A stretch of 64,000 nt of DNA from a virus (IMGVR_UViG_3300043256_000125:2627-66626), one strand, 5' to 3'; shown: positions 7,941 to 9,380, counted from the stretch's first letter. The notes: a model not told the origin generated them from the letters alone. Numbers and translations are program-made.

Positions 7941-9380
7941 TCAGTTCTGGTGGGGATAGAGTTTGAATATGAAGCCCTCCCCAAGATGGACTTCATCGGT
8001 GGTCTCTTCGTTGGTCGTCATGTTTCGCTTGTGCAGATAAATCGGCGGCAAGCCTGTCATTCGTCCGCTCGCGTCCGGTGTCAACATCAGCTCCAACGCC
8101 TCGACTCGCCCTATCAGCAAGTCGAGCTTTGCCATTACCGCCGCACAGTCGGCGTCCTGTCCGACGGTCCCATCCTGCCCGTCTTCCCCCGGCGGGCCCC
8201 GCTGTGGCTCCCGGTCCTCCAATGCCGACACGCGGTTGCGGAACTCTTGGATCAGGGCAAGCAACTCCGCGGGGACCCGAGCAGTCGCAACTGCGACCGC
8301 CGGCGGCCCTGCCGTTGCCGGACTTATCGGGCTTGCACTATTCGGCCGCTCGATCTGCTCGGGCTCTCGGGGAGTTACTGGCGGTATCGGTATCGGTGGT
8401 ACCCTCGCGGCCGGCGACGGCGCGACCGGGTTCAACTTCGGTGGCTCGCCGCCGCGCGGCTGCAAGGGTTCCATTAACCGCGGTAGCTTAGGTCTCGTGG
8501 TCGCCGGCATTCGTATTGGCGGCGGCGCGTACCGGGGGCGCGGAGGCGGAGGACAACAGGACGGCCCGCCCTGCACGCCAGCTCTTCAGGTGTCGGGGGG
8601 TGCGGCCGATGTTAAATAACCCTGCCGGGGCCTTGCGGCAAGTCCGGCAGGGAGGAAGTCTGCTTTCGGACGATGATCGGCCGCTGCGGCCGCGATCGCC
8701 GCTACACCCGGGGCTATCGTCTCGCCGGGGCGGGTAGCCGAAATCAGGCCCACCAGCTCGTTTTTCTCATTGAGGATCGGCCCGCCGGAATCTCCCTGCT
8801 GCGAACTGACCCGTACGGCAAACCAACCGTTGCGATCCCACCGCCCCAATAGGCCGCCGTGCCACCGGAAGCGGCCACCATGAGGATAGCCGCCCAACAA
8901 CAGCCGGGCACCAACCACCGGCAGCCGGGCCGCGAAGCGGACCACCCGGCACAACGGCCGACGGATATGGAGTATGGCGAAGTCGCGGGGCCGGTCGATG
9001 TGGACCACAAGCGCGTTGTACGTCTTGCCGTCGGCGCAGGCCACCTTGACGGCCCCCACGCCCTCGGTAAACAGGTGTGCGGTCGTCACCACCTGCGCTA
9101 GATCACGGCTCTCGGACTTCCATATCAGGACGCCGCTGCACGGCATCGTCTTGTTGCCCAAATGATGGACGACTCTCGGGCAACTCGGGTAGACCGTCAG
9201 TGGAACCGTGGCACCGAAGCACTGCCCGGCCCACAGAATCACCAGCAAGCACACCAGGCAGTACGCGACAAGTGCCGCGCACCATTGCGCCCTGCGTCGC
9301 TTAGCGGCATGGAGAGCTTCGCGCATTTGCTCCAGCCTGGCGGTACGTCGGATGTGCTGTCGCATTTCGTGGTGATCCAT
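7941..9380 (-). CDS. Membrane-anchored trypsin-like serine protease with Pro-rich/short collagen tail, split by an in-frame TGA (8586-8588)
   Basis: TM segment; catalytic motifs TTAH, DFAIL, GDSGGP. ORFs 8586..9380 and 7941..8576 share one frame, separated by TGA AGA GCT GGC. The tail has GPPGEDGQDGTVGQD. Confidence 0.7.

Follow-up and report, generated by a model that had tools for sequence, protein, structure and literature searches.

Introduction

In the RNA phage Q-beta, leaky termination at a UGA codon gives the A1 read-through protein, and the selenocysteine insertion sequence (SECIS) of Escherichia coli fdhF has loop and bulge features that are used here for comparison. Programmed frameshifts are well known in tailed double-stranded DNA (dsDNA) phages; for conserved stop-codon read-through in such phages we found no case in the literature, mostly at the level of abstracts, which is not proof of absence. 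In murine leukaemia virus (MLV), Gag-Pol is made by stop-codon read-through with a 3′ stimulatory RNA structure (PMC5009743). Here we describe a locus of the virus stretch IMGVR_UViG_3300043256_000125:2627-66626 (64,000 nucleotides (nt), called the window below), in which the open reading frame (ORF) of a trypsin-like protease ends at a TGA and the same frame goes on into an ORF for a predicted fibrous stalk. Relatives with both parts in a single ORF, a stop conserved in place, frame and context, and a spacer with coding-like evolution point to programmed leaky read-through of the UGA, probably together with independent initiation of the stalk, and we give this reading an even chance of being right.

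Results

Protease and stalk in one frame across a TGA

As an earlier note on this DNA had described, the protease, the in-frame TGA and a same-frame tail lie in one frame on the minus strand (9380-7941), which counts 480 codons with both TGAs included (Table 1). Past the first TGA the frame reads RAGVQGGPSCCPPPPRP... and stays open for 214 codons to the second one. One public DNA run, labelled as marine sediment metagenome, contains the protease-stalk stretch, and its contig piece over 8520-8644 had zero differing letters, TGA included, but this run may itself be the source of the assembly. A look for RNA runs that contain the stretch found none.

The first ORF matched Pfam Trypsin_2 (PF13365; 6.1e-15, residues 81-212, 56.6 bits against a cut-off of 27.6, full profile 1-144) and also Pfam Trypsin (2.5e-07). 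His102, Asp133 and Ser198 (in GDSGG) were invariant in an alignment of eight sequences, and we take these residues, by their positions, to be the catalytic triad. The N-terminus is a hydrophobic signal or anchor segment, and this together with the neighbouring small membrane and coiled-coil proteins suggests that the protease acts on the envelope, with a possible role in lysis or envelope remodelling.

The second ORF had no match in Pfam or PHROG and is predicted to be a fibrous stalk, laid out as a Pro-rich linker, a helix, five G-X-Y triplets (GPPGEDGQDGTVGQD), another helix and a C-terminal beta-hairpin. The AlphaFold model of the stalk from its conserved Met had a mean confidence score (pLDDT) of 63, too low for its fold to be relied on, with a disordered Pro-rich start, two helices (68-95 and 119-140) and two strands (154-159 and 166-171). 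A Pro-rich tail had been noticed before and is present, with a coiled-coil stalk, but the collagen part named with it is short and comes down to just the five triplets. Low-depth contigs of the public run (about 4-8, against about 600-fold word depth for the phage) replace parts of the Pro-rich linker at 8105-8552; in the two variants with known inserted letters, the change in linker length is 81 nt in one and 87 nt in the other, each divisible by 3. So co-occurring strains differ in the length of the stalk linker.

Relatives with one uninterrupted gene and a clade with a stop

Protease and stalk are a single ORF in several relatives. Protein P0018 (358 amino acids, aa) aligned in one BLASTP segment collinear with residues 69-479 (E 2e-34), with protease and stalk uninterrupted, a similar one-ORF architecture was seen in P0022, P0033, P0057 and P0116, and in L003 a single ORF of 326 aa holds the whole architecture. 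In the IMG/VR phages L131 (457 aa) and L164 (409 aa), protease and stalk again form a single ORF, and the next three genes stand in the same order as in the window, namely a 100-residue protein (77% identity), a short coiled-coil protein and a membrane protein. Because such single-ORF relatives exist, some of them at the syntenic locus, the two ORFs of the window go back to one ancestral gene, and the stop arose later within one clade, where it is old and fixed. The four-gene module made up of the protease-stalk gene, the 100-residue protein (the 77% refers to that of L131), the coiled-coil protein and the membrane protein, none with a known family, occupies 6758-9380 of the window (minus strand), 3764-6323 of L131 and 2255-4647 of L164.

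When the read-through translation was searched against a set of 5.8 billion proteins, the window's own product, six close homologs (P0003-P0008; 40-75% identity, 281-368 aa) and one distant homolog, whose source label is a Pirellulales metagenome-assembled genome, were recovered. The C-termini of the six close homologs, compared as proteins, all fall on one column with (P/R/V)PDT, though the 20-60 residues before it vary widely, and none of the six continues past this column.

The DNA comparison within the clade covered three sequences, the window, L001 and L002. The protease of L001 ends with GAT ACG TGA A (TGA 725-727, A at +4), after which the frame is open for a further 228 codons; the nearest ATG, GTG or TTG lies 51 codons past the TGA. 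The protease of L002 ends with GAA ACG TGA C (TGA 4640-4642, C at +4) and the frame is open for 255 codons; its PET ending is shared with P0011 (both GPET). So [D/E]-T-TGA is found in 3/3 DNA sequences, with A, A and C at +4 and never U, protease and stalk share their frame in 3/3, and the penultimate residue is acidic in 9/9 sequences. Older work in E. coli is reported to have found that acidic penultimate residues weaken UGA termination. A U at +4 is reported to reduce read-through (PMC5289835). Judged by these letters, the stop context is that of a presumably weak bacterial stop. The earlier note had looked to homologs in different frames, or to reads with a sense codon, as evidence against its reading, and what was found is the shared frame of the three sequences and a contig that shows the TGA.

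L002 has no C-terminal helix and linker of the kind seen in the other members, and its DNA from ACG TGA to CCGTCC matches L001, so it more likely lost the DNA between P-x-T and P-D-T and retained the TGA module. One could also read the TGA of L002 as replacing the Cys of the PATC motif (P0003, P0006, P0007), which would be a signature of selenocysteine (Sec); we judged this an artefact, the deletion being likelier.

A recent inactivating mutation or an assembly error, with the stalk as a dying remnant, is hardly credible as the origin of the TGA. Metagenome contigs can carry errors, and nothing specific favours this explanation beyond that, but three independent assemblies have the stop at one and the same position, the C-termini of another six protein clusters place it there too, the public-run contig agrees with the window, and many intact stalk homologs are under purifying selection.

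Broad family scans gave 160 loci, and a profile search found the stalk family at only two of them, L001 and L002. No close relative was found in IMG/VR with the protease (exact peptides and the alignment of close homologs) or with the stalk alignment, nor in GTDB genomes with the protease alignment, and tblastn against GenBank phages at 1e-5 gave no match.

Coding-like evolution of the spacer

The spacer from the TGA to the conserved start codon measures 75 nt in the window (encoding RAGVQGGPSCCPPPPRPRYAPPPIR), 90 nt in L001 and 45 nt in L002, all multiples of 3, and at least three indels separate the three spacers, every one of them frame-preserving; triplet-periodic CCN runs may favour indels of this kind. 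Between the window and L001, the proportions of synonymous (pS) and nonsynonymous (pN) differences in the spacer were 0.66 and 0.31 (Nei-Gojobori, 24 codons), and the same comparison gave pS 0.62 and pN 0.17 for the protease and pS 0.58-0.66 and pN 0.29-0.42 for the stalk. The synonymous excess in the spacer had a Fisher p of about 0.01-0.02, and the protein segment PPPPRP is identical in the window and L001 despite five third-position changes. The spacer thus shows the pattern of the stalk ORF and evolves like coding DNA directly after the stop.

In frame, the window spacer has two start-like codons, GTG (codon 4) and ATA, the L002 spacer has only ATC, as its last codon, and the L001 spacer has none of ATG, GTG, TTG, CTG, ATT, ATC and ATA. 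The L002 spacer nevertheless encodes an intact CPPGGPSETC. The motif C-x(0-2)-GG-x(1-4)-C is present in 27/128 GDSGG-bearing family proteins, of which 21 have it ahead of the protease and 6 behind it, and L131 has a C-x-GG-x-C motif directly after the protease. For the spacer peptide of L001 and L002, ribosomes passing the UGA would be the simplest route of synthesis.

Hairpin, conserved block and the selenocysteine alternative

A hairpin GCAGGGCG-GGC-CGTCCTGT begins 11 nt after the TGA with G first in its loop, as the earlier note had it. Folding of the local 47 nt gives this hairpin as the minimum-free-energy structure in the window and in L001, not in L002. In 3/3 sequences the hairpin starts 11 nt after the UGA, with the loops GGC, GGC and GUC. 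Of its 24 cells over the three sequences 22 are paired, 5/8 pairs are invariant and one pair changes from A-U to C-G. The best-conserved DNA of the junction is the block GGGCGG(G/T)CCGTCC (13 nt, 17-30 nt past the TGA), which is common to all three and whose bases also encode GGPS. Against dinucleotide shuffles the hairpin was no more stable in any of the three sequences (z of +0.37, -0.50 and +1.01, and +1.29 in the 71-nt window context), and the covariation was not significant, with 171/500 shuffles scoring as high for three sequences. A role of the hairpin is possible, and its conservation is indistinguishable from plain sequence conservation.

The earlier note had set this hairpin beside a bacterial SECIS. 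In a Sec reading, the SelB of the host, guided by the hairpin, would have the UGA read as Sec. An in-frame UGA with a conserved frame downstream, the position of the hairpin and the first G of its loop all agree with this, there are Cys residues nearby (the order in L002 is U-P-T-C), and every homolog is cut short at this point by gene callers, which is also what happens to selenoproteins. We nevertheless consider Sec very improbable. An alignment check for Cys at the TGA found it in none of the six close homologs, L001 or L002, and the fused relatives either lack this linker or have one that does not align. The site lies in a disordered linker and is not a redox centre, the loops have 3 nt and there is no bulged U, and the hairpin has the stability of shuffles. 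In addition, the phage record has no selA, selB or selD, and the tRNA-Sec model had no match in the record at E<=1, the tRNA-like gene described below included.

At 8621-8642 (minus strand), inside the 3′ end of the protease ORF, there is a terminator-like hairpin with a U-rich tail; the promoter and terminator scans around the junction were at chance level. The block PAGLAARPRQGY encoded there is identical in P0003 and P0008, of which P0008 is just 40% identical overall; possible readings are an RNA element and a mosaic module.

Candidate stalk starts and the case for two cistrons

A substantial chance, short of even, goes to two cistrons. By this explanation a nonsense mutation divided the ancestral fused gene in two, the protease ends at the TGA and the stalk is translated from ATG 8510 or GTG 8576; read-through is then background noise, and the junction is a gene-boundary or recombination block, or the hairpin serves coupling or mRNA processing. 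A number of observations fit two cistrons and weigh against programmed read-through, beginning with the stalk starts. The window has a Met at the MPATT column (ATG 8510), and five separately called homologs (P0013, P0021, P0032, P0055 and P0160) start with MP(A/T)TT, so this conserved Met probably starts an independent stalk protein, and with independent initiation read-through is not needed. In L001 the codon aligned to the stalk Met is ATA with GGAGG 6 nt upstream (L001 800-817); rare use of AUA as a start, a recent mutation and an assembly error are all conceivable here. GTG 8576 in the window lies 3 codons past the stop, like other tightly coupled genes of the phage.

The arrangement itself is also less special than it looks. 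Among 62 heuristically chosen window ORFs, an in-frame open extension of at least 60 codons follows 7/19 TAA, 4/15 TAG and 8/28 TGA stops, which means that in-frame neighbours are common (about 30% of stops of every kind), and a gene split by a nonsense mutation inherits the shared frame. TGA is the usual stop of the family, with 106/152 of the loci that have the protease stop inside the locus (8 more ran off the end), and by itself says little. So neither the in-frame neighbour nor the TGA is evidence alone. All three frames of all three spacers are stop-free, and therefore the openness of the spacer is no evidence either. The spacer statistic was computed from 24 codons, aligned with the proteins as a guide, only three clade DNA sequences were available, and the hairpin is not significant. 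The GGPS codons differ in 0/4 between the window and L001, where elsewhere 45-54% of identical residues use different codons, and this is only mildly unusual. The short conserved blocks in the variable linker, PAGLAARPRQGY with its identity in P0008 among them, could be recombination boundaries of a mosaic region, and the C-terminal domains of the stalk vary among relatives (window type, WATFRD type, L001 and L002), as expected of mosaic exchange at a gene boundary.

Two cistrons do not readily account for the coding-like evolution of the spacer, for spacer lengths that stay divisible by 3 across the indels, for a conserved spacer peptide in L001 that has no start-like codon and an ATA as its aligned start, or for the intact family motif in the L002 spacer with no start before it. 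The candidate starts of the window are also all without a ribosome-binding motif: GGAG, GAGG or AGGA within 20 nt upstream is absent at GTG 8576, ATG 8510 and ATG 8474 and present for 26/47 window genes. The earlier note had rightly said that the downstream GTG (8576-8574) has no clear GGAG Shine-Dalgarno sequence, as only GAAGAG stands upstream. The remaining TGA cases with an in-frame extension restart within 0-2 codons. In our view the comparative evidence lifts the observation above chance. A general recoding of TGA was considered and rejected, because long extensions follow TGA no more often than TAA or TAG and TGA ends 28/62 ORFs.

A tRNA-like gene with UCA at the anticodon position

The only match to the tRNA model in the 66.6-kb record is a tRNA-like gene far from the protease (Table 1). 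Its acceptor stem, D arm and T arm are canonical in a cloverleaf-like fold, and C-U-UCA-G stands at positions 32-37 (Infernal register; ARAGORN with introns). For the 3′ strand of the anticodon stem to fit, either the loop must have 9 nt or 41 nt must be removed, and about 60 extra nt after the anticodon loop form an extra arm. ARAGORN in its default run did not call the gene, and with introns allowed it gave the anticodon tca and a 41-nt intron; splicing of such short introns is not known from bacteria. A search of GTDB with the 5′ end of the gene for a parent gave one chance match inside a transposase-like ORF, with no tRNA there, and among the 62 window ORFs there were no other phage genes with a TGA that needs suppression.

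The gene is a possible opal-reading tRNA. That the phage makes this RNA as an opal reader for the conserved UGA, and so sets the ratio of free to stalk-mounted protease, we regard as unlikely; if true, it would be a gene-specific, temporally regulated stop-codon suppression in a phage with an otherwise standard code. The earlier note had also seen that CTGAAG across the stop (8589-8584) is complementary to CTTCAG of the tRNA-like gene, which is true in the window but is not kept in the relatives (G-TGA-AG and G-TGA-CC). The six-letter complementarity has no known role, and any relevance would be limited to the UCA/UGA triplet. A phage CsrA homolog (32711-32896, minus strand; Pfam CsrA 8.5e-22) lies about 460 nt downstream of the tRNA-like gene. 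No convincing ORF was seen in 32897-33780, which is possibly an RNA-rich region.

Genomic context

The window is bases 2627-66626 of a linear virus record of 66,626 bp that is estimated to be 72% complete, and nearly all its genes are on the minus strand. From the PHROG gene content, with terminases, portal, head, tail and tape measure, the virus is classed as a siphovirus-like dsDNA phage. The HslV-family peptidase (55998-56543, minus strand) lies between portal and major head, the position expected of a prohead protease. Two adjacent ORFs on the minus strand (48362-48775 and 48798-49214; 137 and 138 residues) match the same part of the major tail family phrog_158 and look like a tandem duplicate.

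Table 1 Features of the window and their coordinates
Feature	Position	Strand	Details
Trypsin-like serine protease ORF	9380-8589	-	ATG at 9380; 264 codons; ends ...APPDT; last sense codons GAC ACC
In-frame TGA, candidate leaky stop	8588-8586	-	Asp-Thr codons before; A at +4
Spacer of 25 codons from TGA to conserved ATG	8511-8585	-	Includes GTG 8576-8574
Hairpin	8574-8556	-	8 bp; 3-nt loop; starts 11 nt after TGA
Stalk ORF from conserved Met (MPATT...)	7944-8510	-	Stop TGA at 7943-7941
tRNA-like gene, UCA at anticodon position	33358-33491	-	Rfam tRNA 37.2 bits, gathering score 29; model positions 1-71
Small and large terminase, portal, HslV-family peptidase, major head, adaptor, two major-tail-like ORFs, chaperone, tape measure	62-45 kb		PHROG matches
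Recombination and replication genes	30-13 kb		PHROG matches
Helix-turn-helix protein, small membrane protein, protease, stalk ORF, three small ORFs, beta-helix protein, virion structural protein	10.4-1.5 kb		In that order

Discussion

The idea of the earlier note that the stop switches between a protease-only and a stalked form fits the fused relatives, the kept frame and context and the coding-like spacer, while its Sec and SECIS part was not supported. In the mechanism that we propose for programmed read-through, the ancestral single gene would have encoded a secreted or membrane-anchored trypsin-like protease on a fibrous stalk, and the TGA of the clade would sit in the linker. Most ribosomes would stop at the UGA and release the 264-residue protease, and a minority, at a rate that the hairpin might help to set, would insert an amino acid there and go on to complete a protease-stalk fusion of 479 residues. 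The simplest donor of the inserted residue would be a near-cognate host tRNA, with the UCA-bearing tRNA-like RNA of the phage as another possible one. The stalk is probably also made alone from ATG 8510, and fused and free stalk chains could then co-assemble.

If the UGA is leaky by design, the locus would be a compact natural example of a phage that sets the ratio of an enzyme to its tethered form, and it would lend itself to a clear test, with a single stop, a small hairpin and just one candidate tRNA. It is also a warning for annotation, as a widespread unnamed phage protease-stalk family is split into two apparent genes in one clade.

Compared with known systems, the locus shares with the SECIS of E. 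coli fdhF a stem-loop 11 nt after the UGA and a G in the loop, and differs in having no Cys/Sec homolog pair, a tiny loop without bulge, a linker site and no tRNA-Sec or sel genes in the record. Stop-recoded phages with suppressor tRNAs (crAss-like) have a tRNA gene reading a stop, as the tRNA-like gene with UCA for UGA might do here; in contrast to them, this phage has no genome-wide recoding and its tRNA-like gene is non-canonical. With Gag-Pol of MLV it has in common a second ORF in frame with the first and an RNA structure a few nt 3′ of the stop, but MLV is eukaryotic with UAG and a proven pseudoknot, and here we have a bacterial setting, UGA and a simple 8-bp hairpin without statistical support. 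The likeness to Q-beta A1 is that of a phage gene in which one in-frame UGA stands between the short main product and a less abundant form with a C-terminal extension, with near-cognate decoding proposed. Q-beta, however, is a small RNA phage with the extension on its coat protein, whereas here a 66-kb siphovirus-like dsDNA phage would extend a secreted protease by a stalk that is maybe also made alone. The fused relatives (L131/L163, L164, L003 and P0018) differ from the window in having no stop in the linker, and they share with it the domain order, C-x-GG-x-C, the collagen-like run and the C-terminal LPP...LGEG...P domain and, in L131 and L164, the downstream gene neighbours.

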